The notes beneath the pieces were generated by a model. It saw only the letters and a program-made list of their open reading frames with translations, ran no database searches and was not told the DNA's origin. A stretch of 35,787 bases of DNA from a virus (lineage: Duplodnaviria > Caudoviricetes). Position 1 is the stretch's first letter. Every line of letters starts with the position of its first letter. The translations under genes were made by a program, and so were the position numbers. The DNA lies in IMG/VR virus record IMGVR_UViG_3300025018_000328, positions 1 through 35,787 of that record; one strand, 5' to 3'. Positions 5,246 to 32,800 of the stretch are shown here, piece by piece.

Positions 5246-5247
5246 TT

Positions 5248-6627
5248 GTGATAGATGAAAAACGAGCTTCCGATTACGCTAAAATCATACAATCCCTGCA
5301 TGCTAAGTGGACACCGCATCAGGGACAAATCACAATCGGCAAAGCTTTGTTCAGAGATGAAAAGAAAAACCTTTTTATAAACGCAGGTCGTAAGTTCGGT
5401 AAAACCGAGCTTGCGATCTATATTCTTTGGCGATGGGCACTCACACATCCACAATCAAATTGTTACTACATAACACCTAGTTTAAAACAAGGACGGGAAA
5501 TTGTTTGGGCAGATCCGCGTATACTAACTTTAGGCGATCATAGTCATATAAAGAAAATAAACAATTTTGAAATGAGATTAATATTTAATAACGATTCGTT
5601 TATAAAAATAGATGGTTCAGAAAACTATCAAGCGCATAGAGGAACCAGGCCTAGCATTGTTATATTTGAAGAGTTTAAAGATCATAACCCTGAATTTAGA
5701 AACGTAATGAAACCTAATCTTGCTGTTTATAATGCACCAGAGATATTTATCGGAACCCCCGATGACAGAGAATCACATTACTATCAAGTTATGCGTGAAC
5801 ATCAAAACGATCCGAATAAGTTTTACTTTGAAGCCTCGACTTATACAAATCCTATAATACCTAGAAAATTCATAGAAGACGAGCGTAAAAGATTATATGA
5901 TATAGGCGAAGGCGATGTATTCGAGCGCGAATACATGGCAAAGCCGGTATTAGGAACAGCTTCAAAAATATATCCCATGATTGATAAATCTTATATTGTT
6001 TCACATGAAACATTGCTGCAAGAAATTGAAAAGGATAAACATAAACTAGAGTGGTATATTGCGGCCGATCCTGCAGGTGCAAGCACCTTTGGTGTATTAT
6101 TTATGGCCTTAAACCCATACACTAAAACCTGGTATGCACTGGACGAAATATACGAAAGAGATCAACTTGAAATGACGGTTGTGAAAATAGGACAACGGAT
6201 TCAAGATATTAAAAAATCATTATGGCACCGCGAGTGGACACAAATATATGATGAGGCAGCCACTTGGTTTAGTAATGAAATGATACAACACTACGGTGAA
6301 CACTACTTTCCTACTCAAAAATCTATGCACAATAAAGAAAATGGCCTTACTTTAATTAAAGACGTATTGTTTCAACGTAAGCTTTTAATTTCATCAAAAT
6401 GTAAATATCTTTATTGGGAAATGGATAACTACTATAAAGACAAAAACGGCAACATACCTAAAAAAAATGATCATTTAGGAAGTGATTGTCTTAGATATAT
6501 ATTAGGCTTTGCTAATTACTCATTACATGAAACACAAGAACCGAAAATTGAGGAAGAAGAAATTTGGTTAGATCAACACAGAAGTTTACGCAGCAAACAA
6601 CCTTCTTCTGAATGGGAAACTTTTTAG
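5248..6627 (+). CDS. terL: Terminase large subunit
   Basis: Q motif PHQGQ, Walker A AGRKFGKT, Walker B IVIFEE, coupling motif IGTP, and RNase H-like nuclease motifs AADPAG and KNDH..DCLRY. Confidence 0.93.
   Translation: MIDEKRASDYAKIIQSLHAKWTPHQGQITIGKALFRDEKKNLFINAGRKFGKTELAIYILWRWALTHPQSNCYYITPSLKQGREIVWADPRILTLGDHSHIKKINNFEMRLIFNNDSFIKIDGSENYQAHRGTRPSIVIFEEFKDHNPEFRNVMKPNLAVYNAPEIFIGTPDDRESHYYQVMREHQNDPNKFYFEASTYTNPIIPRKFIEDERKRLYDIGEGDVFEREYMAKPVLGTASKIYPMIDKSYIVSHETLLQEIEKDKHKLEWYIAADPAGASTFGVLFMALNPYTKTWYALDEIYERDQLEMTVVKIGQRIQDIKKSLWHREWTQIYDEAATWFSNEMIQHYGEHYFPTQKSMHNKENGLTLIKDVLFQRKLLISSKCKYLYWEMDNYYKDKNGNIPKKNDHLGSDCLRYILGFANYSLHETQEPKIEEEEIWLDQHRSLRSKQPSSEWETF
5997..6012. promoter_or_regulatory. 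parS-like palindrome 1 (inside terL)
   Basis: TGTTTCACATGAAACA matches the bacterial chromosomal parS consensus TGTTTCACGTGAAACA at 15/16. Confidence 0.7.
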
Positions 6628-6655
6628 TTGCAATTATTTATTAATTTGGTACTTT
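6628..6655 (+). promoter_or_regulatory. Possible promoter for the portal operon
   Basis: TTGCAA, 16-nt spacer ending in TGG, then TACTTT, in the gap after terL. Confidence 0.35.
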
Positions 6656-6664
6656 TATAGACAC

Positions 6665-6904
6665 ATGATAGAGTTTATTTTTGGCATCATAGTTATAATC
6701 GTAGCACTGCATGTTTTATCCACATTGGCACTATCATACTATTTAATAAAAGCGCATAATGAAATAACTAAAATTAAAAATTCTCAAACTAACTTTTCAA
6801 ATGATGTTAAATTTGAAATGCCTGTTATAAAAAACACTACAGACAAAGAAGACGACGATTTACAAAACATGGACTTTAAAAAGTTTTTTGACGAAGTAAA
6901 TTAA
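6665..6904 (+). CDS. Small single-pass membrane protein
   Basis: About 25 hydrophobic N-terminal residues and an acidic tail; sits between terL and portal. Confidence 0.75.
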   Translation: MIEFIFGIIVIIVALHVLSTLALSYYLIKAHNEITKIKNSQTNFSNDVKFEMPVIKNTTDKEDDDLQNMDFKKFFDEVN

Positions 6905-6922
6905 CGAAAAGCGAGGGGCACC

Positions 6923-9100
6923 GTGGCTATTAGTTGGAACATAAACGATACTACCGACAACTTTCAAAAACCTGATAAACCGTTTTGGGAACTTCCCCAT
7001 GATGACGAGCCTTTTAATAAAGAAATTCATGCTTGGCTACAAGGGGAATTGAATTATTTAAAACAAGAAAATAAAAATAGAATTAATCGCATAGAAAGTA
7101 ATATTTGTCGTTTTAAAGGTATTCAATATCGCGATCAATTGCCTAACTTAACAAGAGTGTCTCCCACAGGGGATAGAATTTCAAGACGAAATCCTGTAGA
7201 AAAAATAGTTGTTAATCATATATTTGATTTTGTGAAAAATCGTGTATCGCGTGCAATGCGCTTTCAGCCAGGCATTCAAATGATCCCTCGTCAAGATAAG
7301 TTTAGATCAAAAAACTATTCTAAAATGGCTAAGTCATTTCAAGAACATATTTGGTATATAAAAAACTATCAGAGATTACTTCGAGCTAATTGGAAACGTA
7401 TTGTTGAAGTGTGTGGAGAAGCGTATTTGTTTATTCTTTGGGATGCCACCGCAGGAGACCTTCATCCAGCATATAAGGAATTAAGAAAAAACAAAATTCC
7501 TTTACTAGACGACAACGGAAGACCAAAATATGACAACGAAGGTAACCCAATATTAATAGAGAAACCTGTCTATGTTGGCGAAGTTGACTATCAACTAGAA
7601 CATCCTATGAATATATATTTAGAACAAGTTAATAGATATGAAAATGTTAATTACTTGTTTCGTCGTGTAATCATGGATTCACACGCAGTAAAATTAAAAT
7701 ATCCTAAACGCATATACATACTTAACTCAGACGAAAATGCTATATTTTACGATTTTGATAACATGGAGTATAAATCGGTTGAAGGCAAAACCGAGGTTTG
7801 GGAGTTTTACTATAAACCTACAGACAAAGTATCGGACGGACGCTTAATCATATTTACAGAAAATGGTATTCTTAGGAATATTAAAAACCCATATAAGAAA
7901 ATTCCTTGTGTTCGATGGATAGGAGAAGATTGGGGAGATCTATACGGGCATTCATTTATAGAAAATGTCGGACCAATCCAAGGCATGTATAATAATTTAC
8001 AAAACTTAATTTTAAGAAATGAAATCATGGTATCGCATCCCAAGTGGGTATATCAAGAGGGATCTGTCAACCCAGCTAATCTTGGAAATGAAATATCATT
8101 AACTCCTTACAAAGGACAAGTTCCTCCAATGCTTGTACAGGCTAACCCAACACCACAAGAGATATTTATTAATTTAACCAAATTAGAAGAAGCAATGCAG
8201 AAATTAGTTGGTGTGCTTGGAGTATCAAGAGGAGAACCGCCTCCTGGTGTAAAAGCAGGTGTTGCAATTCAATATTTAGATCAACAAGAATCTGACAGAT
8301 TCAATGAAGACGTGGCCATTCAAGCCGAAGTGGATAAAATGGTTGCCCAACAAACGCTTGATGTATGTAAAAACAATTATGATGAATCAGACGGTAGAAC
8401 AATTCGAGTAATTGGAGAAAACAATCAATGGATTACCCAGTTCTTTGATATAAAAGCATTAGAACCAGAGTATGATATTATTGTACAAAACTCGTCTGCA
8501 TTGCCTGAAACTAAAGCCGCAAGAATACAAACAATATTAGATATCAATGAAGTGTTTCCAGATTTACTACCAAGAGAACAATTACTTGATATGTTGGATT
8601 TGGGACAGTCTGAAAAACTAATGGACACTGTAACCTTGTCTGTTAAAGCTGCAGAAGCTGAAAATGAAATGATGATGAAAGGAAAAGAAATACCAGAACC
8701 CAAAGAATATGAAGATTTAACAAAACATTGGGCAATACATTTAAAATTAATTAGAGAATGGCAATTCAAAAACAGAACTCCCAAAGAAGTACAAGACAAA
8801 GTAATAAGTCATTTGAGGGCCACAGAATATTTAATGATTGATAAAGGAGTTAGAAGCCCAGCGTATGCGCAATCACTTGACGCATTGGTGGATTTTCCAA
8901 CCGTGTTTAGATTGCCACAAGAAATTACTAATCCACAACCTGTAATGCCTCCACAACCTGTAATGCCTCCACAAGTTCCAGAAGGAATGCCCGAAATACC
9001 AATGCAAGAAAATCAACCGCCAATGCCTGATTTATCTGCACAAGTAGAAAACAATAACCCGTTGCCACAACAGAATTTACCAATAATGAATGAGGAATAA
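6923..9100 (+). CDS. Portal protein (P22-like size and position)
   Basis: 725 aa after terL. Contains GVSRGEPPPGVKAGVAIQYL, DIIVQNSSALPETK and a Pro/Gln-rich tail, as in podovirus portals. Confidence 0.88.
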   Translation: MAISWNINDTTDNFQKPDKPFWELPHDDEPFNKEIHAWLQGELNYLKQENKNRINRIESNICRFKGIQYRDQLPNLTRVSPTGDRISRRNPVEKIVVNHIFDFVKNRVSRAMRFQPGIQMIPRQDKFRSKNYSKMAKSFQEHIWYIKNYQRLLRANWKRIVEVCGEAYLFILWDATAGDLHPAYKELRKNKIPLLDDNGRPKYDNEGNPILIEKPVYVGEVDYQLEHPMNIYLEQVNRYENVNYLFRRVIMDSHAVKLKYPKRIYILNSDENAIFYDFDNMEYKSVEGKTEVWEFYYKPTDKVSDGRLIIFTENGILRNIKNPYKKIPCVRWIGEDWGDLYGHSFIENVGPIQGMYNNLQNLILRNEIMVSHPKWVYQEGSVNPANLGNEISLTPYKGQVPPMLVQANPTPQEIFINLTKLEEAMQKLVGVLGVSRGEPPPGVKAGVAIQYLDQQESDRFNEDVAIQAEVDKMVAQQTLDVCKNNYDESDGRTIRVIGENNQWITQFFDIKALEPEYDIIVQNSSALPETKAARIQTILDINEVFPDLLPREQLLDMLDLGQSEKLMDTVTLSVKAAEAENEMMMKGKEIPEPKEYEDLTKHWAIHLKLIREWQFKNRTPKEVQDKVISHLRATEYLMIDKGVRSPAYAQSLDALVDFPTVFRLPQEITNPQPVMPPQPVMPPQVPEGMPEIPMQENQPPMPDLSAQVENNNPLPQQNLPIMNEE
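8932..8974 (+). repeat. 18-bp tandem repeat in the portal C-terminus
   Basis: TCCACAACCTGTAATGCC x2.4, encoding PQPVMP PQPVMP PQ. Confidence 0.9.
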
Positions 9101-9103
9101 TAA

Positions 9104-10324
9104 ATGACAGAAACTATAGAAACAGATCAAACAACAGAACCTACAATTACGGAAACAAACACTTCTGGTTTGGATGATTTAACAAGCTTTGATGATTTAA
9201 CACCTAAAAAGTTTAATAAAATAGCAACTGCGCCAAAAGAAGATGTTAATGAATTTGATAACTTAAAAAGCGAAGTATTAGAAGACAAGGAGAAAAAAAA
9301 TGACAGCAAAGAAAAAAGCGAACCAAAACAAGAAAAAACCGATACTAAAAACATCGCAGAAAAAACCGATGAAGAAAAAGAAGTAAAAGAAGAAAAAAAA
9401 ACAAAGCTTATTAGCGTGAAGGATGGGGACAACGAATTGTCTTTGTCCTTGGACGCTAAAATTCCAACTAAAATTGACGGTGAAATAGAAGAACCAACAC
9501 TTAGAGATTTACAATCACAATATTCCGGTAAAATACATTTAGATCGTGAGTTTACTAAGTTATCAAAAGAAAAAGAGTTTTTACAAGCACAGACCGAGCA
9601 AGCCTTTAACGCATTGAAACAAATTTCTGATTCCGTAATGGTGGATAAAAACCCGTTAGCGGTGCTAGACTTTGTGGCCGAGCTTACAGGCATAAATCCA
9701 ATTCAATTTAGAAATGAATTTAAAGAACAAATCAAACAAGCCGCATTAGCCGAAGCACAACTAACACCAGAGGAAACATTAAGAAAACAATTAGAAGACG
9801 AGAGATCTTATTATAAAAGCGTACAAGAAAAACAACTTCAAAAACAACAAGAAGCTCAAAAATTCGAGCAAATGAAAATTGCCGCTAAAAATGCAATGAC
9901 TAAGTATGAAATATCACCAGATGATTATATGAGCGCATTTAATGAAATGAGAGAAGCAGGACAGTTTGATCCTAATTTAGGAATAGAGGAAAATGCCGAG
10001 CGTGTGGCCATGTTTTCTTTAGATAAAACAGCTACTAATCTTGTTAGCAATGAAATTAGAAAATATATATCAGAAGGCAATATAGAAAAAGATATTGCAA
10101 CGCTGAAAAACATTTGGTACTCTGATAGTGAAATCACTTTTGACGATATCAAACAATCAATCAAAGAAACGTACGATAAGAAAACCGAGGAAGCGTCAAA
10201 GAAAAAAAAGGCGAACTTGGTCTTATCAAAAAAGGTTGGTAGTGATGAATCACGAACTAATCAAACATCCCCTTGGGATAACGTTAACACCTTTGATGAT
10301 TTGTCGATGCTTCGTTTTAAGTGA
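9104..10324 (+). CDS. Probable capsid scaffolding protein
   Basis: Between portal and major capsid gene. Acidic/Lys-rich disordered N-terminus, KIDGEIEEPTLRDL motif and long helical segments. Confidence 0.75.
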   Translation: MTETIETDQTTEPTITETNTSGLDDLTSFDDLTPKKFNKIATAPKEDVNEFDNLKSEVLEDKEKKNDSKEKSEPKQEKTDTKNIAEKTDEEKEVKEEKKTKLISVKDGDNELSLSLDAKIPTKIDGEIEEPTLRDLQSQYSGKIHLDREFTKLSKEKEFLQAQTEQAFNALKQISDSVMVDKNPLAVLDFVAELTGINPIQFRNEFKEQIKQAALAEAQLTPEETLRKQLEDERSYYKSVQEKQLQKQQEAQKFEQMKIAAKNAMTKYEISPDDYMSAFNEMREAGQFDPNLGIEENAERVAMFSLDKTATNLVSNEIRKYISEGNIEKDIATLKNIWYSDSEITFDDIKQSIKETYDKKTEEASKKKKANLVLSKKVGSDESRTNQTSPWDNVNTFDDLSMLRFK

Positions 10325-10340
10325 TTTAATGTTATATAAG

Positions 10341-10384
10341 GACTGAATCGATAGGGAGCCGTAAGGGTAACCCCGAAGGTTAGC
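10341..10384 (+). promoter_or_regulatory. Structured leader upstream of the major capsid gene
   Basis: Nested pairing CTGA/TTAG, TCG/CGA, GGG/CCC and CC-GTAA-GG (GNRA loop), in a GC-rich island ~40 nt before the start codon. Confidence 0.5.
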
Positions 10385-10425
10385 TAATTGAAATACAAAT
10401 TAATTAACTTTTAAGGGAGGCTATT

Positions 10426-11679
10426 ATGGCTGGTTACGTAGTCAATTCAACTAATACTGTTAACAATGGTATTTTAAAACAAGTTTATTCCAAACTTGCA
10501 ATCAATGCTTACAATTCTGAAAATAAAGTACTAAGTCAAATTAAAAAAACGTATGATTTTACAGGCTATCAAAAAGTGTTCTCTGTACCATCATCTTTTT
10601 CCGGCGGTGTTGGTTCCGCATCTATTCCAACAGTTTCACCTTCAATTGATAGAAATGCAGTTTTACTAAGAAAAAAAGTGTACTCTAAAATTGAAGTAGA
10701 CCGTGAAGCTGCAATGGCATCTAAAACAAGTGAAGGCGCATTCTTTGAATACACAAAGTATGCAATGAAAAAATGTGTTGAATCTTTTTTAAGAAATCAA
10801 TCAAGGATATTGTTTGGTGGAACCGGAGCATCCAGTGGAGCAATGGGTGGGGATGGGTTACTAGGAACCACAAACACAGATATTACAGCAAGTACAACCT
10901 CAATTGTTATTGTTGAAACTGGAAATGAATCTGTATGGGAAGAACAAGACATTGTTGATATTTACGACGGAGCTACATTAAAAAGTAAATTTTTAATTGA
11001 AGCTGTTGCAGTAAATGCAACAACCAACGTTGTAACACTAACTGTATCCAACGTATCACACGTTGCAGACGATGCTACAAACGGTCTTAGCCTTTATATG
11101 CAAGGGTCAAAAGGCGCAGAGCCTGTAGGCCTTAGAGCCGTAGCAGATATGAGTGGGACAGCTACATTGTATGGCTTATCATTTGGGCGCAGATGGCAAA
11201 TGAACACAATAGATGCAAGTTCTGCCGGAATATCTGTAGACTTATTGAATCAAGGAATGGTTGAAACTGAAAGACGTTTCGGTCATGCACCTAAATTAAT
11301 CGTTGCTTCCTATAAACAATACAGAAAATTATTAAATCTTATTGAAGATGCAAAACGTTATCCAATGAAATCTGTAGAAAAAGTAGGCAAAGGATATTTC
11401 TCTTTTGAAGCTCTTGAGTTTATGTCTTCAAACGGACCAGTGCCTATTATTCCTGAAAGATTTGTGGATGACGATAGAATTTACGGACTCAACACAGATC
11501 CAGAATGTTTAAGAATTGAACATGCACCTAACTTCGGTTGGTTCGAAGATAATGGGGAAATAATTTTCCCTGGTTATGTTGGCGGCGGCTCGAGCGACAC
11601 GCTCATGGCCATTTACGGGGGATATTGTCAAAACGTAATATTGCCTCCCGCGCATTTCTGTATAAAATCATTGGCTTAA
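10426..11679 (+). CDS. Major capsid protein
   Basis: 417 aa after the scaffold, with a strong AAGGGAGG SD and a terminator downstream. The GPVPIIPERFVDDDRIYGLN segment resembles HK97-fold capsid proteins. Confidence 0.85.
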   Translation: MAGYVVNSTNTVNNGILKQVYSKLAINAYNSENKVLSQIKKTYDFTGYQKVFSVPSSFSGGVGSASIPTVSPSIDRNAVLLRKKVYSKIEVDREAAMASKTSEGAFFEYTKYAMKKCVESFLRNQSRILFGGTGASSGAMGGDGLLGTTNTDITASTTSIVIVETGNESVWEEQDIVDIYDGATLKSKFLIEAVAVNATTNVVTLTVSNVSHVADDATNGLSLYMQGSKGAEPVGLRAVADMSGTATLYGLSFGRRWQMNTIDASSAGISVDLLNQGMVETERRFGHAPKLIVASYKQYRKLLNLIEDAKRYPMKSVEKVGKGYFSFEALEFMSSNGPVPIIPERFVDDDRIYGLNTDPECLRIEHAPNFGWFEDNGEIIFPGYVGGGSSDTLMAIYGGYCQNVILPPAHFCIKSLA

Positions 11680-11691
11680 TAAACTAAACAC

Positions 11692-11727
11692 AAAGAGTGG
11701 GGGTTATAAAACACCTCCGCTCTTTTT
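11692..11727 (+). terminator. Rho-independent terminator after the major capsid gene
   Basis: Stem AAAGAGTGGGGG / CCTCCGCTCTTT, followed by Ts. Confidence 0.75.
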
Positions 11728-11750
11728 GTACATTAAAAGGAGTGACTCTC

Positions 11751-12068
11751 ATGTTAAGAAACCCAGTAACAACTCAAAGAAGCGTAAGAGTACTTGCCGG
11801 AAACGTTGCAAGTAATGCATTAGTAGAAGGTGAATTTGATTCAAGCGTAGCAGTCGCATCAAGCGTATACACATTTACATTTAATGAACCATTTGCAAGA
11901 GATCCTGTGTGTGTTGCTTCCTCTCAAACAGCAGCTAAAAACTTACAGGTGCACACAATATCAACCTCGGGTTTTAAAGTAAGTTCATTTGCAGTTGACG
12001 GTACAACACCGGCAGACGCAGATTTTTCATTCTTAGTTTGGGGATTTGATGCGGCAGACGAAGTATAA
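11751..12068 (+). CDS. Putative capsid decoration protein with a gp53-like/H-type-lectin-like beta fold (start revised from 11697 to 11751)
   Basis: AAGGAG SD before the ATG at 11751; the upstream extension is the terminator. Pattern FTFNEPF..DPV.VAS...ISTSGFKV...FSFLVWG. Confidence 0.6.
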   Translation: MLRNPVTTQRSVRVLAGNVASNALVEGEFDSSVAVASSVYTFTFNEPFARDPVCVASSQTAAKNLQVHTISTSGFKVSSFAVDGTTPADADFSFLVWGFDAADEV

Positions 12069-12081
12069 GGAAATATAAATC

Positions 12082-12405
12082 ATGGGTCAAACATATAAGC
12101 AGCAATATGCAGATAAATTTGTTTTCAATAAATCAGTAAGTGCAAGTGGAATTATTGGAAACAATTCTTATGATGTATCGGTTGAAAGTAAAGTAAATAT
12201 AGTAGTGTCAGGAGCAGGAGCAGCTAACGAGGTTACTATTAAAGGTAGAATCTTTAAAGCTGCATTTGCAACTATTTCTACTATTACAGGTGATACAACC
12301 GGAATAATGCTTGATGTGTCTATTTATGATGAAATACAATTTGATTGTACTAATTATGATAGTCAAGCTTTTACAATAAAAGCATCGGGTTTTATAATAC
12401 TTTAA
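12082..12405 (+). CDS. Small virion protein, paralog of the N-terminal domain of the giant fibre
   Basis: Aligns end to end with residues ~1-110 of 12431..18208. Confidence 0.8.
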   Translation: MGQTYKQQYADKFVFNKSVSASGIIGNNSYDVSVESKVNIVVSGAGAANEVTIKGRIFKAAFATISTITGDTTGIMLDVSIYDEIQFDCTNYDSQAFTIKASGFIIL

Positions 12406-12430
12406 AATTACTATAGACGAGGTAATATAA

Positions 12431-15400
12431 ATGGCTACTTTTAAACAACAAAATGCAGATAAATTTAGATTTAATCACGTAATAACTGGAACTGGTGTAA
12501 TAGGCAACACTAGTTATCCCATAGAAGCGGAGCGTAGTTTAAGAGTAGTAGTACTCGGGGCTGATGCTACAAACGCGATAGTTGTAAGGGGTAGGATTTT
12601 AACCGGACCTGATGCTTCGGCTTGGGTAGACCTTGCAACTGTAACAGCCGATACGACTGGGACCACTATTGCTGTTGATATATACGATGAGTTACAATTT
12701 GAATGTACTGTGTTTGATGCTGTATCAACTAGCCTTGAAGTGTGGGCATCTGGGTTTGTCAACATAACTCCCGCATCGTCAACAGTAGGAAATGTCGACG
12801 GCCCGCTAACATCCACAGACAATGCCGTAGCCCGATGGGACGGGGCCGCCGGGGATACCTTGCAAGACAGCGGTATTATAATCAGTGACGGTAATGTTAT
12901 AACCGGAGCAACCAATATTATTTCGGGAAAACATGTATCGTTAAATAATGCTAACGCTGCTTTTGTATCTGCTTACGATACGCCAACTACTCAAACCGCG
13001 GATCAAAACGGGCTTGTGTTAGATTACGACACTAATTTTACGACAAATTCAAATGCTTTAACTGGAGTAGTAATTAATATTGACGGAACAGATGTTACAA
13101 ATAAATTTTTTGTTGTAGCATTGAAAGATTCTGTCCCAGTTTTTACGGTTGATATAGACGGCAACGTTTTTTTTGATGGCACAATAAATGGAACAGATCC
13201 GGCATTGTTTATAATAGGCCCTGGGTTATCGACGGACAACGCTTTGGTAGTTTATGACGGGGTTGACGGGGCTTTAGCAAAAGATTCTGGTTTATTAGCC
13301 TCACCTACTATAAATGATTTAGTTGTTCCGGGTGTTTTTGAAAGTAAAAGTTTATTTTATGTAAATGCAGGAGACTTTGTAAGCGTAGGTACCCAAACTC
13401 CACAAGTAGGATCATTAGTTGTGTTAGAGAGTGCAAGTACTAGTGAGGTATTGGAGTTAAATTCTCAAATCGCTGGCAATACAGGAGTTGTTTTAACTGC
13501 AAATCATTTAGAAACTGGAGCTTTAAATAATGCAATTTTTAGTATCAATGCAAATGCTTGGGATGATATTTTTTCTTCACTTCAAATATATTCACAAATT
13601 TTATTTAGTATCATCGATCCTACTAATACCACACAAACTGGGAAAATAGATTTTTATGTAATGGAAAGTGGCATTGCAACTAACATCATGCAGTTAAGTG
13701 GGGATGGACAAATAAATCTCAATCACATTACAACAATTACTAACGATCAAGACGATAATACTTTAAAATTAATTAGCACCAATGGTGTATCTCAACTTGG
13801 ACCTTCTATATCATTCTTTTACGATAACACCGTAGGCGTAGCAGGAGATATCGTTGGAGATTTACATACACAAGGTAAAAACGCTGCCGGGGATACTATA
13901 AATTACACAAGATTAATGATGACGATTGGAGATCCGGCGGCGGGTAGTGAAATCGGAATGTTTGATTTTCAAGTAAGAAACGGGGCCGCTTTTAATTCAA
14001 TATTAACGATAGATGCCGACGGACCTAAGGTAGACAGTAATCTTCTTGCAGCAAGTTCTGTTATATCCGTAACCGACAATGCTTTGGTAAGATTTGACGG
14101 TGTCACGGGTGCAATTATACAAGATTCAACTGCAACGATAGACGATACAGGCGTTTTAACCATGGCGGGTGAAATTGCTATGGGGACGAATAAAATAACA
14201 GGCTTAGGAGATCCAACTAACCCACAAGATGCGGTTACTAAAAATCATTTCGACACGGCTCAAGTAGCTTCAAACGTAAGTATGTCTGTTATTGGAGCAC
14301 CAACATATTCAAGCGTACAAGATTTGCAAAACGTGTTTCATTCTGCTGGATGGCTTTCCGGAGGAGACGTAACAGACAATCTTGATGGAACAGTTGCAGT
14401 GGCATCTGGAACCGGTGCTATAAGATCTGGAGCAAGTGCTGTATCCGAGCTATTGTTTTTTGATTGGGCAGCTTCGGCTAGCAAGGCACTAACCGATTTG
14501 GTGCAAAATTATATTTACATAGATTATAATGCAGGAACGCCGGCAATCGTAGTTTCTATAAGCCCACAAACTGATTTTTTTCAATTTATAGAACTTGCAA
14601 GAGTATATCGAAAAGGGACAGAGCTTCATATTAATGAATCCTTTAGACAAGCCGTAGGCGATCATGCATCCTTAATGTTACAGTTTAATGAAGATATAAT
14701 GCCCTACGCTCATGCAAGTGGATCTGCTATTTCTGAAACCGGGACAAGAAACATTGGAGTAACGGCGGGGGTTTTTTGGCAAGGGCTTACACGTTTTACC
14801 ACAACAGCTTTCGATTCATCCGTTGCAGGAACATTTTCATACTTTTATAGAGACGGGATAGGTGGATGGACAGAAGTAACAGCACAAACTCAAATAGATA
14901 ACACACAATATGATGACGGAAGCGGAGCATTAGCAACGCTAACAAATAACCGTTATGGTGTGCATTGGATATATCAAGAAACCGATTCCGATATTGTAGT
15001 AATATATGGACGAGGTGATTACAACACACTAGCTGCTGCTCAAGATGCAGATCCTTTTAATGATGTACCGCCAAGAATTTCAACACAAGGTTATTTGATT
15101 GGTAAAATTATTATTCAAAAATCCGCTTCAAGTTTCGCTGAAATTAATTCTGTTTTTGAATCAAGTTTTAGTATAAGCCCTACAAACAATCATAATGAAT
15201 TATCAGGAATACAAGGCGGTGCTGCTACGGAATATTATCACTTAACTACAAGTGAGCACACAGTAGCAACACAAGCGGCCACAACGTCATTAGACGGATT
15301 TTTAAGTTCAACAGATTGGAACACTTTTAATGATAAAGTTGATGGCCCTGCTAGTTCAAGTGACAATATAATTCCTAAATTTGATTTAACTACTGGAAAA

Positions 15401-18208
15401 TTATTACAAGAATCTGGCATTACGTGTGATGACAGTAATAATTTAACCGGACTTGGCACGTTAAACACTCGTACAATAGCAAATTGGGTAGACGGACCAG
15501 GAACCTCAACCGATGGCTATATAGCGTTATGGGACGGTGTAACCGGTAAATTATTAAAAGATTCAACCTATGATCCTTCTACCATAGTAATTGGCCCGGC
15601 AAGTTCAACCGACACAGCAATTGCTTTGTATAATGGTATTACTGGGAAAATAATCAAAGATTCAGTAGTGTTGGTTGATGTTAGCGGGAATTTAACTGGG
15701 CTTGGCACGTTAAACACTCGTACAATAGCAAATTGGGTAGACGGACCAGGCAGTGCAAGTGACGAGGCTATTGCAAGATTCGATTTAACCACAGGAAAAC
15801 TTATACAAAATAGTGGAGTATTGATAAGTGATACTAATGTTATAACCGGGGTGACTTCAATTGTATCCGGTAAAGTAGTGGTTCAAAATAATGCTGTAGC
15901 TGCAGCACCGGCGTATGTAAGTACATATACCGCACCTTTCACACAAACCGGAGCAATGACGGGGTTGGTATTAGATTATGACACTAATTTTACCACAAAT
16001 GTAAATACCTTCGCTGGTGTAGTAATAAAAATAGACGGCACAGATGAAACAGGGAAAGTATTTTTCAATTTCTTTAAAGATGCTGGCAGTGTTGCCTCAA
16101 TGGATATAAACGGTAATTTAGTTTGCGGAACTGTAAATGGCGTTAATGTAACAACGCTTACGGGGGATGTAAGCGGCCCCGGTATAGCAGTCACAGACAA
16201 CGCCATTCCAAGGTGGGACACTACAAGCGGAACAAATATCCAAGGATCAGGCGTAATTATAGATGATAGTAATAATATAACAGGGGTTAATAATTTAACT
16301 TTAGGTGGGGGAACGATAACGCTTTCTGTTGACACTAATTTTGTATTAACAGGCGGTGTAAATGGAGTTTCATTTGATAGCGGAGTACTTTCAATTGATG
16401 CAGCTAATAATCGAGTAGGTATCAACACAACTGCACCGACTGCAAGTTTTAATGTAAATGGCGGCACTACTCTTTTTGGCTCTGTTGGAACTGATGGATG
16501 GATAGCAACGGGTGCAAGTGGGGTTGGGGGATTTAGTAGCGAAACAAGAACTACATACGCATTTACGGGACTAACAAACACTGGAACTGGGATTAATTGG
16601 GGATTATATCAAGGGGTTAAATACACTACAGGTATAATTAGCGGGGGTAGTGAATCCCAAGCGGACGTTGCCGTTAGTTATGATATTGATATACCAAGAT
16701 GTACTTTAGGGGCTGAAGTAAGGGATTATTATGGGATTCGTACTCGAGCATTTGGTGCGACCGTATTTACAGACCAATTAACCATTCCCTACAATACAGG
16801 ACTTGTTACTGGACACTTAATTGACCTTGATACGAATATTACATTTACGAATGCAGAACGAAACGTAACAGGACTTGAGATATTAATAGATAGTGGAGTT
16901 TCTGGTTCGTTTACAAGGGATTTAATAGTTGGGAAATCAGACACTACGGTTTCGCTAAGATTGTCTGCAAATGGTGCTGCCGTATTTAACGAAGCGGGCA
17001 ATGCGGTTGATTTTAGAGTTGAGGGAGATACCCAAGATGAGCTTTTATTAATTAGAGGGGATGTCGATAAGATTAAAATTGGTAACTATAGTACATCAGA
17101 AGACTTTTTTGCCAGATTAACGGTTACAATTCCAACTTCTGCTCTTGGAAACCCAAGAGTACTTGGAGTTTATAGTGGAACATTAACCGGAATAGCTGCA
17201 AGCAGTTCTCAGGGAACAATACTTATATCTCCTGGCTCTCAAGAGCGCGCAACCGGTAATATAACTGGTGGCGATTTTGCAGATAGTAAAATATTTGGAC
17301 CAGAGTACAAAGCGGTTGGCGCATCAACTTATACCCATACCAATGCGCTATATGTAGCCGCTAGTTCTCAAGGAGCTAATGTTACTATAACAAATAATTG
17401 GGCTTTAGGATTAAGTGGTTCTGCTCAAATGATAGGCGGTGGCTTTTATATTGATCGTACAGGAGGTACGGGAACAACAGCGGTTCCAACTAGTGCGCTT
17501 GATTTACATGTTGCTGATAACGGGACTTGTGCTATTATGCGAATCAATGCAACTCAAGCAAATGTCACGGCATCGGATACGTTTATAGAATTTAGATCAA
17601 CGTCTGGGGTAGAAGGATCGATTGCAGGAACTGGATCGGCCGGAGTGTTGGCATATAATACTTTTACAGGAAGCCATTGGTCTCAATTCGATGATTCGAG
17701 GGTTAAGGTTGAAAAGAAGGTTGAAAAGAAAGTGGATAAATTTAAAAAGATAGAATCTTATACGGAACAAGATAAGGACGGAAAAACCGTTTATAAAGAG
17801 AGAGAAGTTGAATGTGAAGAGGAAAAAGAGATTATACTTAATTATGCAAACATTGAAGATGGAACATTACTAGTTACATCCGGTAAAATATGTAAATGGG
17901 AAGGGGAAGTTGCAAATCATCTTCCGATGGTAAAACTAAGCGATAAAAAAGAAGATAAAAAGATTTATGGCGTATTTGGTGGATGCGACAAAGACGGCGA
18001 TGTTATGGTTTTAGCAATTGGTTCAGGTTTAATTTTAGTTTGTGATGAGGGTGGGAAAATAGAATCCGGTGATTTACTATGTTCGTCTTCAAAGCCCGGA
18101 TATGCAATGCGATATGATGGAAACGATATGCGAGTTGTGGTTGCTAAGGCTAGGGAAGACTTTAACTCTAAGAATGGTAAAATTGCATGTACTCTATTAG
18201 GAGGTTAA
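12431..18208 (+). CDS. Giant repeat-rich fibre protein (1925 aa) with a putative C-terminal intramolecular-chaperone-like domain
   Basis: Thr/Gly/Ser/Asn-rich, with about 8 GPxxSTDNAIARFDG-type repeats and a KITGLGDPTNPQDAVTKN fibre motif. The C-terminal FTGSH...GDLLCSSSKPGYAM domain has a different, charged composition. Confidence 0.82.
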   Translation: MATFKQQNADKFRFNHVITGTGVIGNTSYPIEAERSLRVVVLGADATNAIVVRGRILTGPDASAWVDLATVTADTTGTTIAVDIYDELQFECTVFDAVSTSLEVWASGFVNITPASSTVGNVDGPLTSTDNAVARWDGAAGDTLQDSGIIISDGNVITGATNIISGKHVSLNNANAAFVSAYDTPTTQTADQNGLVLDYDTNFTTNSNALTGVVINIDGTDVTNKFFVVALKDSVPVFTVDIDGNVFFDGTINGTDPALFIIGPGLSTDNALVVYDGVDGALAKDSGLLASPTINDLVVPGVFESKSLFYVNAGDFVSVGTQTPQVGSLVVLESASTSEVLELNSQIAGNTGVVLTANHLETGALNNAIFSINANAWDDIFSSLQIYSQILFSIIDPTNTTQTGKIDFYVMESGIATNIMQLSGDGQINLNHITTITNDQDDNTLKLISTNGVSQLGPSISFFYDNTVGVAGDIVGDLHTQGKNAAGDTINYTRLMMTIGDPAAGSEIGMFDFQVRNGAAFNSILTIDADGPKVDSNLLAASSVISVTDNALVRFDGVTGAIIQDSTATIDDTGVLTMAGEIAMGTNKITGLGDPTNPQDAVTKNHFDTAQVASNVSMSVIGAPTYSSVQDLQNVFHSAGWLSGGDVTDNLDGTVAVASGTGAIRSGASAVSELLFFDWAASASKALTDLVQNYIYIDYNAGTPAIVVSISPQTDFFQFIELARVYRKGTELHINESFRQAVGDHASLMLQFNEDIMPYAHASGSAISETGTRNIGVTAGVFWQGLTRFTTTAFDSSVAGTFSYFYRDGIGGWTEVTAQTQIDNTQYDDGSGALATLTNNRYGVHWIYQETDSDIVVIYGRGDYNTLAAAQDADPFNDVPPRISTQGYLIGKIIIQKSASSFAEINSVFESSFSISPTNNHNELSGIQGGAATEYYHLTTSEHTVATQAATTSLDGFLSSTDWNTFNDKVDGPASSSDNIIPKFDLTTGKLLQESGITCDDSNNLTGLGTLNTRTIANWVDGPGTSTDGYIALWDGVTGKLLKDSTYDPSTIVIGPASSTDTAIALYNGITGKIIKDSVVLVDVSGNLTGLGTLNTRTIANWVDGPGSASDEAIARFDLTTGKLIQNSGVLISDTNVITGVTSIVSGKVVVQNNAVAAAPAYVSTYTAPFTQTGAMTGLVLDYDTNFTTNVNTFAGVVIKIDGTDETGKVFFNFFKDAGSVASMDINGNLVCGTVNGVNVTTLTGDVSGPGIAVTDNAIPRWDTTSGTNIQGSGVIIDDSNNITGVNNLTLGGGTITLSVDTNFVLTGGVNGVSFDSGVLSIDAANNRVGINTTAPTASFNVNGGTTLFGSVGTDGWIATGASGVGGFSSETRTTYAFTGLTNTGTGINWGLYQGVKYTTGIISGGSESQADVAVSYDIDIPRCTLGAEVRDYYGIRTRAFGATVFTDQLTIPYNTGLVTGHLIDLDTNITFTNAERNVTGLEILIDSGVSGSFTRDLIVGKSDTTVSLRLSANGAAVFNEAGNAVDFRVEGDTQDELLLIRGDVDKIKIGNYSTSEDFFARLTVTIPTSALGNPRVLGVYSGTLTGIAASSSQGTILISPGSQERATGNITGGDFADSKIFGPEYKAVGASTYTHTNALYVAASSQGANVTITNNWALGLSGSAQMIGGGFYIDRTGGTGTTAVPTSALDLHVADNGTCAIMRINATQANVTASDTFIEFRSTSGVEGSIAGTGSAGVLAYNTFTGSHWSQFDDSRVKVEKKVEKKVDKFKKIESYTEQDKDGKTVYKEREVECEEEKEIILNYANIEDGTLLVTSGKICKWEGEVANHLPMVKLSDKKEDKKIYGVFGGCDKDGDVMVLAIGSGLILVCDEGGKIESGDLLCSSSKPGYAMRYDGNDMRVVVAKAREDFNSKNGKIACTLLGG
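15452..15750 (+). repeat. Exact 50-bp direct repeat within the fibre gene
   Basis: CTTGGCACGTTAAACACTCGTACAATAGCAAATTGGGTAGACGGACCAGG at 15452-15501 and 15701-15750. Confidence 0.95.
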
Positions 18209-18209
18209 T

Positions 18210-18335: not shown

Positions 18336-18338
18336 AAA

Positions 18339-20621: not shown

Positions 20622-20633
20622 GAGACAAACTAT

Positions 20634-20903: not shown

Positions 20904-20904
20904 A

Positions 20905-22142: not shown

Positions 22143-22151
22143 TGAAAAAAC

Positions 22152-24698: not shown

Positions 24699-24708
24699 GA
24701 CAAGTACA

Positions 24709-25074: not shown

Positions 25075-25087
25075 AGGGGATATAAAC

Positions 25088-27164: not shown

Positions 27165-27167
27165 AAA

Positions 27168-29672: not shown

Positions 29673-29930
29673 ATGGATTCAATAGTAATGCAGTTTTTGG
29701 CTGTTTTGTTAGGGATTACATTTTCTGGAAACATATTTTTCTTTAAACGAATCATAAATAAAATAGACGTATTTGAAGACAAGCTAGAAGCTATTCATAA
29801 GGATTGGTATTACACTAAAAGCAAAATGGAATTAGTTGATGACAGAATAGAAAACATTAAACTACAATTAAAAGAAATTACAACTAATTGCAATAAATTA
29901 CATCCTGTTAGAATATATAATAAAGATTGA
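29673..29930 (+). CDS. Membrane-anchored coiled-coil protein (holin/antiholin-like)
   Basis: One N-terminal hydrophobic helix followed by a coiled coil; first gene of the lysis region. Confidence 0.55.
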   Translation: MDSIVMQFLAVLLGITFSGNIFFFKRIINKIDVFEDKLEAIHKDWYYTKSKMELVDDRIENIKLQLKEITTNCNKLHPVRIYNKD

Positions 29931-29951
29931 TATAAAAAAAAAGGGGGGTAT

Positions 29952-30167
29952 ATGCCACAAGTACTAAAGGATTTATTATCCAGTAAAAAGTTTTTAGTTA
30001 TGATTTTAAGTTTACTTGGTGCGGTTGGGGTTCAATTTTTGGCCGATCCTATACACGCCGATAAATTAGCAGACATTATAGTAATGTTGGGTGGGTTATT
30101 TCTGGGATCACAAGGATTGGCTGATTTATCTAAAGCCAAGGCACAAATAGAAAACAAAATAAAATAA
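29952..30167 (+). CDS. Putative holin (two transmembrane helices)
   Basis: LLSSKKF.. then two hydrophobic helices and a ..QGLAD..K basic tail; strong SD. Confidence 0.7.
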   Translation: MPQVLKDLLSSKKFLVMILSLLGAVGVQFLADPIHADKLADIIVMLGGLFLGSQGLADLSKAKAQIENKIK

Positions 30168-30168
30168 T

Positions 30169-30363
30169 ATGTTAACAACAATATGGAATGTGTTAAAAAA
30201 CTTGCCTCAATTTTACGTTTTGCTTAAAGAAGTAGTATCTTTTTTATCTCGTTTTGTTGATTCGTATGAGAAGGCTCAAAAGTTAAAGGATTTGAATGAG
30301 GCGATAAAAAAGGCTAAGAATGAAAAAAATACAGAAAATCTTGAGAATTTGTTTAAAAAATAA
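30169..30363 (+). CDS. Small amphipathic/coiled-coil protein, possible inner spanin-like component
   Basis: Amphipathic N-terminal helix and charged C-terminal helix; overlaps the lipoprotein gene by 44 nt. Confidence 0.5.
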   Translation: MLTTIWNVLKNLPQFYVLLKEVVSFLSRFVDSYEKAQKLKDLNEAIKKAKNEKNTENLENLFKK

Positions 30364-30700
30364 AGATCAATTATTATTAATATTTTTACTTATATTTTTA
30401 TTGGGCGTCATTGTGTCATTAACAAGTTGTGGCGGTGGGGAAGGACTTCCAAGTGGTTTTGATGGTAAGATTTGGGCAGGAGACTCAAGCGATGCTACTA
30501 TCAAGCGTTCCCAGACTGGGGAAGTAATTTCAACCAGTGACTCTAAGTTTGACGATTATGCCGCAATATCATATAGTGATTTATCCTGTTTATATCAAGT
30601 ATTGGTTTATAATTGTTTATCATGGAAACAAGAACACGTAGAGTGCAAGTCTTTATCAACCGACACAATTAAAAGAACGATAAGAAAGTACGATAAATGA
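30320..30700 (+). CDS. Lipoprotein, possible outer spanin-like component
   Basis: Basic N-region, hydrophobic H-region and lipobox LTS/C followed by GGG; GAGG SD. Confidence 0.7.
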   Translation: MKKIQKILRICLKNKDQLLLIFLLIFLLGVIVSLTSCGGGEGLPSGFDGKIWAGDSSDATIKRSQTGEVISTSDSKFDDYAAISYSDLSCLYQVLVYNCLSWKQEHVECKSLSTDTIKRTIRKYDK

Positions 30701-31113
30701 ATAAAAGAGATTTGTTTGTAAAAGAAGTAAAAAAATGTGTCAACATTCCCTATATTTGGGGTGGCAATAACGGAGACGTGGCATCAAAAAAAGCCGGGGT
30801 TGATTGCTCGGGGTTAGTGATATGGGGGGGCTTAAAATCCGGGTTGTGGAACAAAACGTTTGATGATACGGCCGCTGGGTTGTTTAATTCTTGTGTGTCT
30901 GTTAAGAAAATAAATAACGGCGATTTAATTTTTTATGGTAAAAACAGAATCACACATGTTATGATATTTATAGACGGTAAAGCTTTTGGTGCCACAGGTG
31001 GGGGATCAAAAACCACTACAAAAGAAATAGCAAAATCGATAGGTGCTAAGGTTTGTTATAAGCCTATATCGTATCGAAGCGATATATACGGCATAGGTTC
31101 CTTGCCTTTTTAA
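30697..31113 (+). CDS. NlpC/P60 peptidoglycan endopeptidase (probable endolysin)
   Basis: PYIWGG, GVDCSGLV (catalytic Cys), GDLIFYG and ITHV (His). Confidence 0.9.
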   Translation: MNKRDLFVKEVKKCVNIPYIWGGNNGDVASKKAGVDCSGLVIWGGLKSGLWNKTFDDTAAGLFNSCVSVKKINNGDLIFYGKNRITHVMIFIDGKAFGATGGGSKTTTKEIAKSIGAKVCYKPISYRSDIYGIGSLPF

Positions 31114-31119
31114 TATTAT

Positions 31120-31506
31120 ATGAGTAATAATGACATAAAGTTATTTTTTGATATAGAGCCTAGAGGGCTTCATATAACGCAAGACCCGCATACGGGTCAA
31201 TCCAAGATATCTTACAAAACATGGACGTTTAGAAAAGGTATTCTTGGACTTATTAAACAACAGTATTTCAAAGACCCTGTTGAGTGTAGACTTTCACTTG
31301 AAGTAATATTTAATTTAAAAAATAAAGATCATGATAAATTAATGTCGACTAGTAGGCCTGACTTAGATGATTTATTGGCCAATATAATAAAGCCTATGTC
31401 TGGTGTAGTTTTTCAGCGCACTGCACAAATTCAAGAAATGATGGTAAAAAAAATATATTCTAAAGACGAGGGCTATATAATGATAAATCTCAGGAAACTA
31501 GATTAA
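31120..31506 (+). CDS. RusA-like protein, probably catalytically degenerate
   Basis: PVECRLSLEVIF...SRPDLDDLL...SGVVF...AQI..M.VKKIY...G.I.I.L follows the RusA layout. Confidence 0.7.
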   Translation: MSNNDIKLFFDIEPRGLHITQDPHTGQSKISYKTWTFRKGILGLIKQQYFKDPVECRLSLEVIFNLKNKDHDKLMSTSRPDLDDLLANIIKPMSGVVFQRTAQIQEMMVKKIYSKDEGYIMINLRKLD

Positions 31507-31777
31507 GTTTGTTTAATGTTTTTTCAATTTCATAGACAGTAAGAAGTTTTTTTTCTTTAGCTATAGAGTATAGTATTTCACGAATGTTTTCTACAGACAT
31601 ATTGGATTTGATTAATTCCTCTGTGTAATAAGACACTGCGTCTATTGTGTGTGGGATATTAAGTGTTGAGAAGTAGTTTTTCACAAGCAAAGCGACTTCT
31701 TGGGATTTATTAAACATAACAGTATTAAAGATAATGCTTTTTATAAAAAAAAGTAAATAATATTTATTTATCTTCAT
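31490..31777 (-). CDS. Hypothetical protein (true start may be the ATG at 31717)
   Basis: Last ORF of the - strand block; small helical protein. Confidence 0.55.
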   Translation of the reverse strand: MKINKYYLLFFIKSIIFNTVMFNKSQEVALLVKNYFSTLNIPHTIDAVSYYTEELIKSNMSVENIREILYSIAKEKKLLTVYEIEKTLNKLNLVS

Positions 31778-32102
31778 TATTATTTAAGTTATCAACAGAG
31801 TTATCAACCTGTTCATAAGTGTTTAAATCACCGATAAGGTTAGTGATTGAATTGCTTACTATCTCAAGTTTTTTCAAAGCGTCGTCAAATATTTCTATTT
31901 CATTATTGTTTTCTAATCTAAGTAATCTTTTGTCCATAACCGTTAATTCTAACTGAATTTCATCGATTTTGTCCATCATAATATTTATAGTCATAAGCAT
32001 GTGTCCTTTGCAACAATTAATCATATTGGATGAGTTATCTTTTGTACAAGCAGGACATTCAGGATCATGAGGTATAGATTTTTCAAACTCTTCGTGTGTC
32101 AT
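31764..32102 (-). CDS. Hypothetical protein with a Cys/His cluster and coiled coil
   Basis: AAGGAG SD. HDPECPAC...CCKGH followed by heptads. Confidence 0.7.
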   Translation of the reverse strand: MTHEEFEKSIPHDPECPACTKDNSSNMINCCKGHMLMTINIMMDKIDEIQLELTVMDKRLLRLENNNEIEIFDDALKKLEIVSNSITNLIGDLNTYEQVDNSVDNLNNNEDK

Positions 32103-32116
32103 ATAAGTAGTTCTCC

Positions 32117-32725
32117 TTAAAATGGTAGTTGTTCGGTAGAACCTGGTTGTATTGATAAAAATTTACCTATTTTATCTAACAAAAAAGCGTTTTTAGTAGA
32201 CTTATGAAACTTAAGAAGCTCGTCTTTTTTAGTGTCCCAAACTTCTTGGATAGTAAGACCTTCAAACGGCGGATATTTAAACATAGTTTTACCCACGTCG
32301 TCTACTTTGTATTGAGGGGGGGTATTTTTATAGGTTTCACGTGAAACACTATTACCGTCATCGTCTTCCTCACAAGGAATGGCTAATAACGCGGCTAATT
32401 GTTGTCTCTTACCATAGGTAATTGCAGCCCCTAATGATTGCATGTTTACACGTTCACCTAATTCTAGTTTTAGCATGCCGGATGACCACACTTCACCCGA
32501 TACGTGTTGTAGGATTGTTTCAAGACTAGAAAAGCCTTCGACTGTGCATACTTTATGAGATAGAAAAAAACCGTTATTGTTTAAAGGTTCCTTTGCAACT
32601 TTAATAATTTCCTCATAGGTTGCATACATTGATTTAAAGTGTGGATTTTCTGCGCTTTTTACTGCTTCTTTGATTGATTTTTGAACTGTTAGTAAAGCTG
32701 TGAATAACTGTGATTTGTTTTCCAT
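32117..32725 (-). CDS. erf: ERF-family ssDNA-annealing recombinase (start revised from 32740 to 32725)
   Basis: NPHFKSMYA, LETILQHVSGE and QSLGAAITYGKR..L.ALL.I..EEDDDGN are ERF signatures; GGAGG SD before the ATG at 32725. Confidence 0.92.
   Translation of the reverse strand: MENKSQLFTALLTVQKSIKEAVKSAENPHFKSMYATYEEIIKVAKEPLNNNGFFLSHKVCTVEGFSSLETILQHVSGEVWSSGMLKLELGERVNMQSLGAAITYGKRQQLAALLAIPCEEDDDGNSVSRETYKNTPPQYKVDDVGKTMFKYPPFEGLTIQEVWDTKKDELLKFHKSTKNAFLLDKIGKFLSIQPGSTEQLPF
32333..32348. promoter_or_regulatory. parS-like palindrome 2 (inside erf)
   Basis: GGTTTCACGTGAAACA matches the consensus at 15/16, with a perfect 14-bp core GTTTCACGTGAAAC. Confidence 0.78.
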
Positions 32726-32800
32726 TGAATATACCTCCATTTGAAAAGTTAAGTGTATATAAATTAATAATTTGTAAATGTAAACATCTTTTTTATAAAC

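Follow-up and report, generated by a model that had tools for sequence, protein, structure and literature searches.

Putative host-type parS sites in terL and erf of an uncultured podovirus recur among its relatives beyond the needs of the encoded peptides

Introduction

The virus record IMGVR_UViG_3300025018_000328 (Duplodnaviria; Caudoviricetes), analysed here over its whole length of 35,787 nucleotides and called the window, carries two 16-bp palindromes of the chromosomal parS type, one within the terL gene and one within the erf gene. parS is the centromere bound by the bacterial partition protein ParB, and the locus therefore raises the question why a phage holds such sites inside coding sequence and which protein would read them. 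A sequence-only reading of the window had proposed that the phage lacks partition proteins of its own and borrows the ParABS and SMC machinery of its host to position or segregate its DNA, or that it titrates host ParB. We examined the sites by chance models, codon analysis, phylogeny and scans of related phages and candidate hosts.

Results

Two parS-type sites exceed chance expectation

Site 1, TGTTTCACATGAAACA, is located at positions 5997 to 6012 within terL (5248 to 6627, plus strand), and site 2, GGTTTCACGTGAAACA, at positions 32333 to 32348 within erf, which encodes a single-strand annealing protein (32117 to 32740, minus strand; PF04404, phrog_2324). Each palindrome matches the Caulobacter parS TGTTTCACGTGAAACA at 15 of 16 positions, exactly as the sequence-only reading had reported, and the two are the sole matches within 3 mismatches: comparison of the whole window with TGTTTCACGTGAAACA yielded two 16-mers with one mismatch, none with two or three and two with four (next best 12/16). 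The chromosomal parS sequences used for comparison are TGTTTCACGTGAAACA of Caulobacter and TGTTCCACGTGGAACA of Bdellovibrio bacteriovorus (PMC10547168, PMC5815017, PMC7383237). Site 1 is a T-type site with the central ACAT variant. It is read as I-V-S-H-E-T (TerL residues 250-255) and lies between the ATPase and nuclease domains (Terminase_6N at residues 44-243, nuclease-region match at 285-420). Site 2 is read on the minus strand as S-V-S-R-E-T, immediately after the conserved DDDGN motif of Erf. The two sites are separated by 9.3 kb on the circular genome. Runs X2 to X4 cover the genome in short pieces, and among the pieces listed none spans site 1.

Markov models of order 0 to 5 predicted 0.0004-0.0014 sites within one mismatch per genome, which agrees with the earlier hand estimate of about 1e-3, and the probability of at least two sites was at most 1e-6, so that two are indeed unlikely by chance. 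Synonymous recoding of 40 genes, the codon-shuffled null that had been proposed as a check, gave 0.031 expected sites vs 2 observed. Given the peptide and the codon usage of the phage, the probability of the site was 0.011 for site 1 and 0.020 for site 2, or about 2e-4 jointly.

parS codons are retained at the terL position

The TerL family is large and uncultured, with 350 homologues and a top identity of 58%. Relatives in IMG/VR were not retrieved by a single-protein search; alignment-based searches succeeded, and a scan with the pattern WEMDNYxKD contributed just 4 further loci. In an alignment of 118 TerL proteins the commonest residues around site 1 were K251 (43 proteins), P252 (83) and E255 (47), with T255 in 9, and H253 was nearly invariant (109/118). 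The DNA pattern tGTT-NCA-CAT-GAA-ACA must encode V[SPA]HET, and this peptide was present at the aligned position in 7 of the 118 proteins.

The underlying DNA was compared for two lineages besides the window, L102 (with the same TerL as G051/L180 and P0059) and L110, whose TerL proteins are about 50% identical to that of the window. L102/G051 has the identical 16-mer at the same terL position and L110 a one-base variant, while the flanks have diverged. The probability that the silent positions were kept, given the peptide, was 0.0015 for L102 and 0.00026 for L110, both of which are GC-richer than the window (G+C at third codon positions 0.50 and 0.57). Among 204 distinct DNA contexts at this position, one had 1 mismatch, one had 2, none had 3-4 and 202 had at least 5. 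One of the TerL homologues, P0032, is an 804-aa protein with a match to PF14890, which we take to be an intein splicing domain.

In a FastTree phylogeny of 201 rows the seven V[SPA]HET proteins sit in separate parts. An IQ-TREE phylogeny of 39 rows, picked from the 118 after the FastTree result had been viewed, required 4 changes for V[SPA]HET, at least 3 of them imposed by starred branches; the proteins came together in none of 200 bootstrap trees, and a single V[SPA]HET clade was rejected (approximately unbiased test, p-AU 1.35e-5). These counts do not distinguish gain from loss, and recombination could also have transferred so short a tract. For site 2 the picture differs from that at terL: its peptide class occurred in 1 of 120 Erf homologues, namely the window phage's own, and the homologues diverge right after DDDGN. 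Conservation beyond protein constraint, which had been proposed as a check, is thus borne out for site 1, with parS codons in both relatives compared, and finds no homologous support for site 2. We consider it very probable that the window sites are kept as DNA sequence, beyond protein constraint.

parS sites are enriched and scattered in the phage family

The non-redundant DNA of the family (2.03 Mb) contains 6 sites within 1 mismatch of TGTTYCACGTGRAACA, where 300 permuted palindromes gave 0.09 on average and 2 at most. Sites within 2 mismatches number 12 compared with 2.17, and 1 of the 300 controls reached 12; at 3 mismatches the excess over the permuted palindromes was not significant. 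An additional 0.25 Mb contained 2 sites within 1 mismatch (0.016 expected) and 5 within 2 (0.27 expected), and none of 500 controls reached either value. A fresh set was drawn from 28 large records, of which G481 and G493 were dropped for want of a TerL match; in G466 and G467 parS had already been looked for before the prediction on ParB_N described below was set. Of the remaining 26 records, 4 have a site within 1 mismatch against an expectation of 0.04, and 8 have one within 2 against an expectation of 1.0. The enrichment in related phages that the sequence-only reading had called for was therefore seen in all three samples, and sites also occur in other genes, another point that it had named for checking: they are scattered over terL, several portal positions, tail genes and small open reading frames (ORFs).

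Among 21 peptides of the form V[SP][RH][EG]T in ORFs of the family, 8 were written in parS codons compared with 0.18 expected, and one has two mismatches. The terL site of L303, which lies in another frame, was discounted as a case of convergence (P 0.21 given its peptide); the corresponding value for the L070 site was 0.11. Two parS sites of a Paludibacter metagenome-assembled genome (MAG) were likewise discounted, since they are on a 44.7-kb contig and not on the 42.2-kb phage contig.

Some further sites were noted in passing. G462:C1 has three C-type sites at 2 mismatches (20478, 29071 and 30270), one of which, TGTTCTCCGTGGAACA, recurs in G467 (G467:C1 26959). The viral contig L492 has the site-1 16-mer inside erf (reverse strand, 1500), read as VSCET, and the viral contig L529 has it about 0.4 kb upstream of an erf gene (L529:1501).

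In IMG/VR at large, we estimate that about 2,000 stored stretches hold the exact TGTTTCACATGAAACA, a figure extrapolated from 4 of 64 parts and without a matched control. In 80 of these stretches (L487-L566) no parA or parB was found within 1.5 kb of TGTTTCACATGAAACA. They contain 79 distinct TGTTTCACATGAAACA sites, 45 outside long ORFs and 27 in the V-S-x-E-T frame, and 9 loci hold more than one.

The phage encodes no recognisable partition cassette or integrase

Pfam and PHROG scans of the window detected no ParA, no ParB with a helix-turn-helix (HTH) and no integrase; about 20 small ORFs of the window have no family, and an unusual DNA-binding protein could hide among them. HTH_ParB and AAA_31 were each found in 0 of 5 site-bearing records (window included), and the integrase family PF00589 in none of the 22 records with a completeness of 90% or more and in 2 of 42 overall; serine recombinases were scanned for in the window alone. 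Lacking both ParA and such a ParB, the window is not a phage-plasmid with a type I partition cassette, and, judged by integrase, it is not an integrating temperate phage. The earlier statement that none of these three genes is recognisable is upheld by the family scans, and an HTH-less ParB_N domain had been overlooked.

This domain is encoded at 3511 to 4788 (plus strand), the sole ParB-fold gene found in the window, where a ParB_N fold (residues about 1-150; feature score 0.94 to ParB_N clusters, structure rows naming PF02195) is fused to an N6/N4 DNA methylase starting at about residue 175. There is no HTH and no room for one before the methylase domain. The GxxR box is degenerate (GTQR, GHGR in relatives) and the copy is divergent. 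According to PMC12704722, parS is recognised by the HTH and ParB_N-methylase fusions are common among phages generally; the fusion of the window is probably not the reader of its parS sites. Elsewhere in the family ParB_N is found beside terS as a methylase fusion, as a fusion of about 255 aa or as a stand-alone protein of 153-166 aa ending in CxxC (examples L341:1486-1986, L342:1291-1758 and L343:1483-1944).

In the discovery set of 28 records of at least 30 kb, sites within 1 mismatch were present in 3 of 6 ParB_N carriers and 0 of 22 others (Fisher p 0.006), and sites within 2 mismatches in 5 of 6 and 3 of 22 (p 0.003). The association was then set as a prediction for the fresh set, where it failed, with 0 of 3 carriers and 4 of 23 others within 1 mismatch (p 1.0) and 1 of 3 and 7 of 23 within 2 (p 1.0). 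Pooled p values, uncorrected for kinship, were 0.08 and 0.014, respectively. The window's own score against the ParB_N profile is not independent, because the window was in the seed. All four strong-site records of the fresh set are without any ParB_N match, and strong sites in records with no detected phage ParB-fold gene point to host ParB as the reader. The five near-complete T-type carriers (the window, G037, G051, G456 and G458) all have ParB_N, and the strong sites of the fresh set are C-type or mixed, none being pure T-type; a link of ParB_N to T-type sites in particular is possible. TerS and the winged helix of the replicase were rejected as site readers, since 47 of 54 relatives are without the site, which could not be dispensed with if it served as pac or origin.

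Candidate hosts and their parS type

A scan of GTDB genomes for TerL relatives gave 20 loci. The closer ones are for the most part contigs of phage size that sit in unrelated MAGs and that we take to be mis-binned. One locus, L084, is part of a prophage in a Pseudobdellovibrionaceae contig (G052:C389; L225, L084, L226). Its TerL is 37% identical to that of the window and nine window proteins match co-linearly at 24-39%. On the left the prophage is flanked by dnaE, which was confirmed, and by miaB, guaB and guaA, identified by eye; on the right tyrosine-recombinase-like and GST-like genes follow, both below curated cut-offs. At about 38 kb the prophage appears intact, and its genes include ones of the repressor-like HTH and the tyrosine-recombinase-like kind. 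It lacks any parS within 1 mismatch. A second MAG with a family contig belongs to the same GTDB phylum sample, though it was deposited as Epsilonproteobacteria; TerL relatives were found in 2 of 401 genomes of this sample. We infer that the phylum is Bdellovibrionota and that the host of the window phage is an uncultured bacterium of this phylum with a T-type parS of its own.

The parS core was present in 190 of 201 phylum genomes, and the C-type GTTCCACGTGGAAC predominates among the matches listed. The 43 T-type genomes are uncultured, were deposited under Deltaproteobacteria and similar names, and all have a ParB that scores above the TIGR00180 cut-off. Of the 17 phylum genomes with an exact copy of the site-1 16-mer, 16 have it at a distance of 1.5-3.3 kb from parB; an exact copy of the site-2 16-mer is present in G323, 0.4 kb away from a parB match. 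In the comparison with a predicted host that had been proposed earlier, both exact variants stand beside parB in some genomes of the phylum, but the phylum is mostly C-type.

The parS type is split by lineage within the phylum (G058-G439), with C-type pairs about 2.45 kb apart in many genomes. All 14 genomes of the class of G091 are T-type, often with pairs 30-100 bp apart and an ACAT centre.

Many relatives of the window phage carry C-type sites, and TGTTCTACGTGGAACA, present in the relatives L008, G459 and G496, is identical to the parS that precedes parA in the genome harbouring the L084 prophage. These matches fit the idea that phage sites track the parS type of the host. No direct phage-host pair was found when positions 1-12,500 of the window were compared with the 43 T-type genomes, the result being one methylase-level match and weak chance-level matches; G085:C15 has only methylase and Erf in common with the window.

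Position of the sites relative to a putative origin

The sequence-only reading had placed the sites about 5.9 and 3.4 kb to either side of a putative origin. The arithmetic is right when measured to the (TA)n tract at about 106 to 160, but this tract as an origin is unsupported: no iteron array was found and the GC skew has no switch there. The tract, which is downstream of the replication gene and directly after its Prim-Pol coding region, is an imperfect inverted repeat around CCTATACGTGG, and the two end copies of the window (one at 35654-35787) are slightly unlike within it. The wider idea of a meaningful origin-flanking placement is not supported either, because the sites of relatives are scattered and some lie up to 14-16 kb from terL.

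Genome organization of the phage

The window is the whole virus record and closes to a circle of 35,653 bp through an end overlap of 134 nt; the junction is spanned by a contig of run X1, which is possibly the source sample. The closest-matching metagenome was from an aquifer. In scans of 42 ORFs we identified a terS-like gene, the DNA methylase, terL, SU10-like portal, capsid and adaptor genes, NlpC/P60, RusA, Erf and a Prim-Pol/DUF3987 replication protein (33381 to 35702, plus strand). The window phage is a circularly assembling SU10-like podovirus of about 36 kb from an uncultured family. No close cultured relative was found in 50,697 phage records, where the best TerL identities were 22-30% among the 30 matches listed and the major capsid protein had no match, and literature searches returned no paper on this family among the matches listed.

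A lysis-like cassette at 29952-31113, recognised by eye, comprises two small membrane proteins, a lipoprotein-like ORF (…LTSC…) and NlpC/P60, the last being the only one with a family match; it suggests a Gram-negative host. Two genes resembling Holliday-junction resolvases or endonucleases (1811-2167 and 31120-31506) are present in the same 36-kb genome. The 1,925-aa tail protein (12431-18208) has no family match and includes an internal repeat at about 15450-15730 with an identical 16-mer at 15452 and 15701, where contigs of run X1 break. For the ORF at 32943-33350 no usable atlas match was obtained.

Discussion

What the sites may do

Taken together, the presence of the sites goes beyond chance, their recurrence in relatives, in variable stretches of several genes, is more than the peptide demands, and the phage has no detectable ParA, HTH-bearing ParB or integrase. 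The sequence-only reading had named a lack of enrichment among relatives and freely varying VSHET/VSRET codons as grounds for giving up the proposal; where this could be checked, enrichment was present and the VxHET codons were fixed to parS in both relatives compared. The parS sites of the window thus appear to be a real and selected feature that corresponds to host-type parS at the DNA level. As the best explanation we propose, with a probability of about 0.5, that the sites in terL and erf load host ParB and that host ParA and SMC position the unintegrated phage circle and pass it on. The host would be an uncultured bacterium of the Bdellovibrionota phylum with T-type parS. By analogy to ParABS biochemistry (PMC12704722, PMC5815017), its ParB-CTP would nucleate at each site and spread over about 2-10 kb, linking the phage circle to ParA and SMC. 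The least certain step is the last one, in which the genome would be kept, or shared out to the daughter cells, while lysis is delayed or in a carrier state, comparable to the use that phi29 makes of the prespore. That host ParB reads the window sites seems to us a good deal firmer than the nature of the benefit, for which we lean slightly towards positioning or segregation because of the precedents of phi29 and SGI1 and the absence of an integrase.

Several observations weigh against this reading. The codon comparison at the terL position covers three of the seven V[SPA]HET proteins, the other four being P0038, P0040, P0042 and P0103, and support for site 2 comes from its codons (P 0.020), with none from homologues. 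Free codons were used in 12 of the 21 parS-compatible peptides, mostly the conserved portal motif GVSRGT, and L050 (VSRET) and L063 (VPRGT) have free codons at portal positions where other relatives hold a site. Since parS-compatible peptides are split in this way into parS-coded and free-coded ones, the sites seem to arise opportunistically on pre-adapted peptides. Among near-complete relatives 7 of 54 have a site within 1 mismatch (3/28 and 4/26) and 16 of 54 within 2 (8/28 and 8/26); most site-bearing relatives carry one site, and none of the relatives examined has two within 1 mismatch, as the window does. The low prevalence and the mostly single sites argue against a core maintenance system; the trait is accessory and patchy, and most relatives are without a strong site. 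The assignment of the host is based on one prophage and one binned contig, with TerL relatives also binned in unrelated MAGs. T-type KGTTTCACRTGAAACA occurs in just 43 of 401 phylum genomes (control 1), and no TerL relative was found in the 14 genomes of the all-T-type class of G091. ParB of B. bacteriovorus is described in PMC10547168 as binding its own C-type site and not the T-type Caulobacter TGTTTCACGTGAAACA, which counts against a Bdellovibrio-like host for the window phage. Finally, a strong parS on a plasmid lowers the viability of Caulobacter about 1000-fold according to PMC5815017, and such harm is as compatible with titration as it is with segregation.

Titration is a close rival of segregation, although we give it a clearly lower probability. 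In this case replicating phage copies would act as decoys that titrate ParB or ParA, stall segregation and division and keep the cell an undivided phage factory. The sequence evidence is identical for both explanations, and the loss of viability in Caulobacter, the failure to delete parA and parB in B. bacteriovorus reported in PMC10547168, where ParABS thus appears essential, the dose-dependent destabilization of a helper plasmid by the parS mimics of SGI1 (PMC10954446) and the absence of integrase from the 22 near-complete records would all be in line with it. A single site would suffice once the copy number climbs, which fits the usual one site per genome. On the other hand, the lytic cycle may end before blocked segregation matters, and the patchy presence argues for a modest benefit, as it does under segregation. 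The two functions are not exclusive, and SGI1 combines both.

An extension of the proposed use of host ParABS is speculative and, as a whole, rather unlikely: a podovirus family of predatory Bdellovibrionota might repeatedly recode variable protein stretches to the parS type of the host and use growth-phase-gated ParB as sensor and carrier. The phage DNA would be idle in the hunting cell, clamped on growth and dealt unintegrated to the progeny of non-binary division, in a cis-only phage-plasmid state.

Regulation is a less probable alternative still. Spreading host ParB might dampen transcription or replication of packaging and early recombination genes and thereby tie phage development to host growth. 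Site 1 is internal to terL and site 2 is about 0.4 kb into erf, close to a divergent intergenic region, and PMC10547168 describes B. bacteriovorus ParB as occupying parS in the replicative phase only. However, relatives have their sites in terL, at two portal positions, in tail genes and in small ORFs, a range of unrelated genes with no single regulatory position in common. Slightly lower again do we rate a role for the HTH-less ParB_N of the phage, which might dock on host ParB clamps and bring the methylase to phage DNA. The association in the discovery set, its presence in all five near-complete T-type genomes, the co-occurrence of both elements in the window and a perfect site about 100 bp before the ParB_N gene of L113 speak for it; the failure of the prediction stated beforehand, the recognition of parS by the HTH and the wide occurrence of such methylase fusions speak against it. 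An accidental origin of the 16-mers from VSHET/VSRET and AT-rich codon bias, with no function at the DNA level, is largely refuted: the near-invariant H253, the common P or S at residue 252, the preferred codons CAT and GAA (0.78 and 0.79), the free-coded peptides and the values for L303 and L070 show the terL position to be pre-adapted and some sites to be cheap, but they do not account for the joint probability in the window, the retention in two GC-richer relatives, the excess of parS-coded peptides in the family or the permuted-palindrome controls.

If host ParB reads the sites, centromere piracy would extend beyond the phages of spore formers. A Gram-negative phage family would have come to it on several occasions and paid for it with altered amino acids in core proteins. 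Phages that are called lytic for absent integrase or par genes could still be inherited, and whether a parS is T-type or C-type would hint, from sequence, at the host of an uncultured phage. In view of the estimated 2,000 IMG/VR stretches with the site-1 16-mer the phenomenon may be common, and a systematic survey gains value over the study of a single genome.

Comparison with known systems

In the phage-plasmids P1 and N15 both ParA and ParB are phage-encoded and the centromere is of the plasmid type. The window phage resembles them in the proposed combination of extrachromosomal phage DNA with a centromere and differs in that neither ParA nor ParB was found. With chromosomal ParABS systems it shares the sequence of the sites, both variants of which are found beside parB in genomes of the candidate host phylum, and even the intragenic position is not peculiar to the phage, since host chromosomal parS can also be located within genes (mnmG and rsmG in G054). 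Unlike a chromosome, the window replicon has no parAB, and its sites are 9.3 kb apart and not clustered.

SGI1 carries parS mimics that hijack the ParABS system of IncC plasmids (PMC10954446). The likeness lies in two cis-only parS copies without parAB, which in SGI1 stabilize the element and destabilize the owner of the system, as that source describes. In contrast, SGI1 is an integrative element and mimics a plasmid parS, whereas the window sites are chromosomal-type and overlap coding sequence.

The closest precedent is the Bacillus phage phi29, for which PMC2731898 describes five parS sites used through host Spo0J. Like phi29 and Nf, the window phage has no partition proteins of its own and carries host chromosomal-type parS in cis, with host ParB as the proposed reader; the sequence match and the absence of its own ParA and of a parS-reading ParB, the marks of such a cis hijack, were both found in the window. 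According to the same source phi29 is linear and protein-primed, infects a spore former, has its five sites together with Spo0A boxes, benefits by spore entrapment and has had binding shown. The window phage is circular, with a presumably Gram-negative, non-sporulating host, one or two intragenic sites in a minority of relatives, multiple origins of these sites and putative binding. In the literature searched, which covers few subscription papers, phi29/Nf was the only published phage case of host-type parS. The basic idea of host-type parS piracy is therefore not new. What appears to be added here, from codons and trees, is evidence for repeated recoding at one terL position and a replicated family-wide enrichment, and possibly a predatory, non-sporulating host group.

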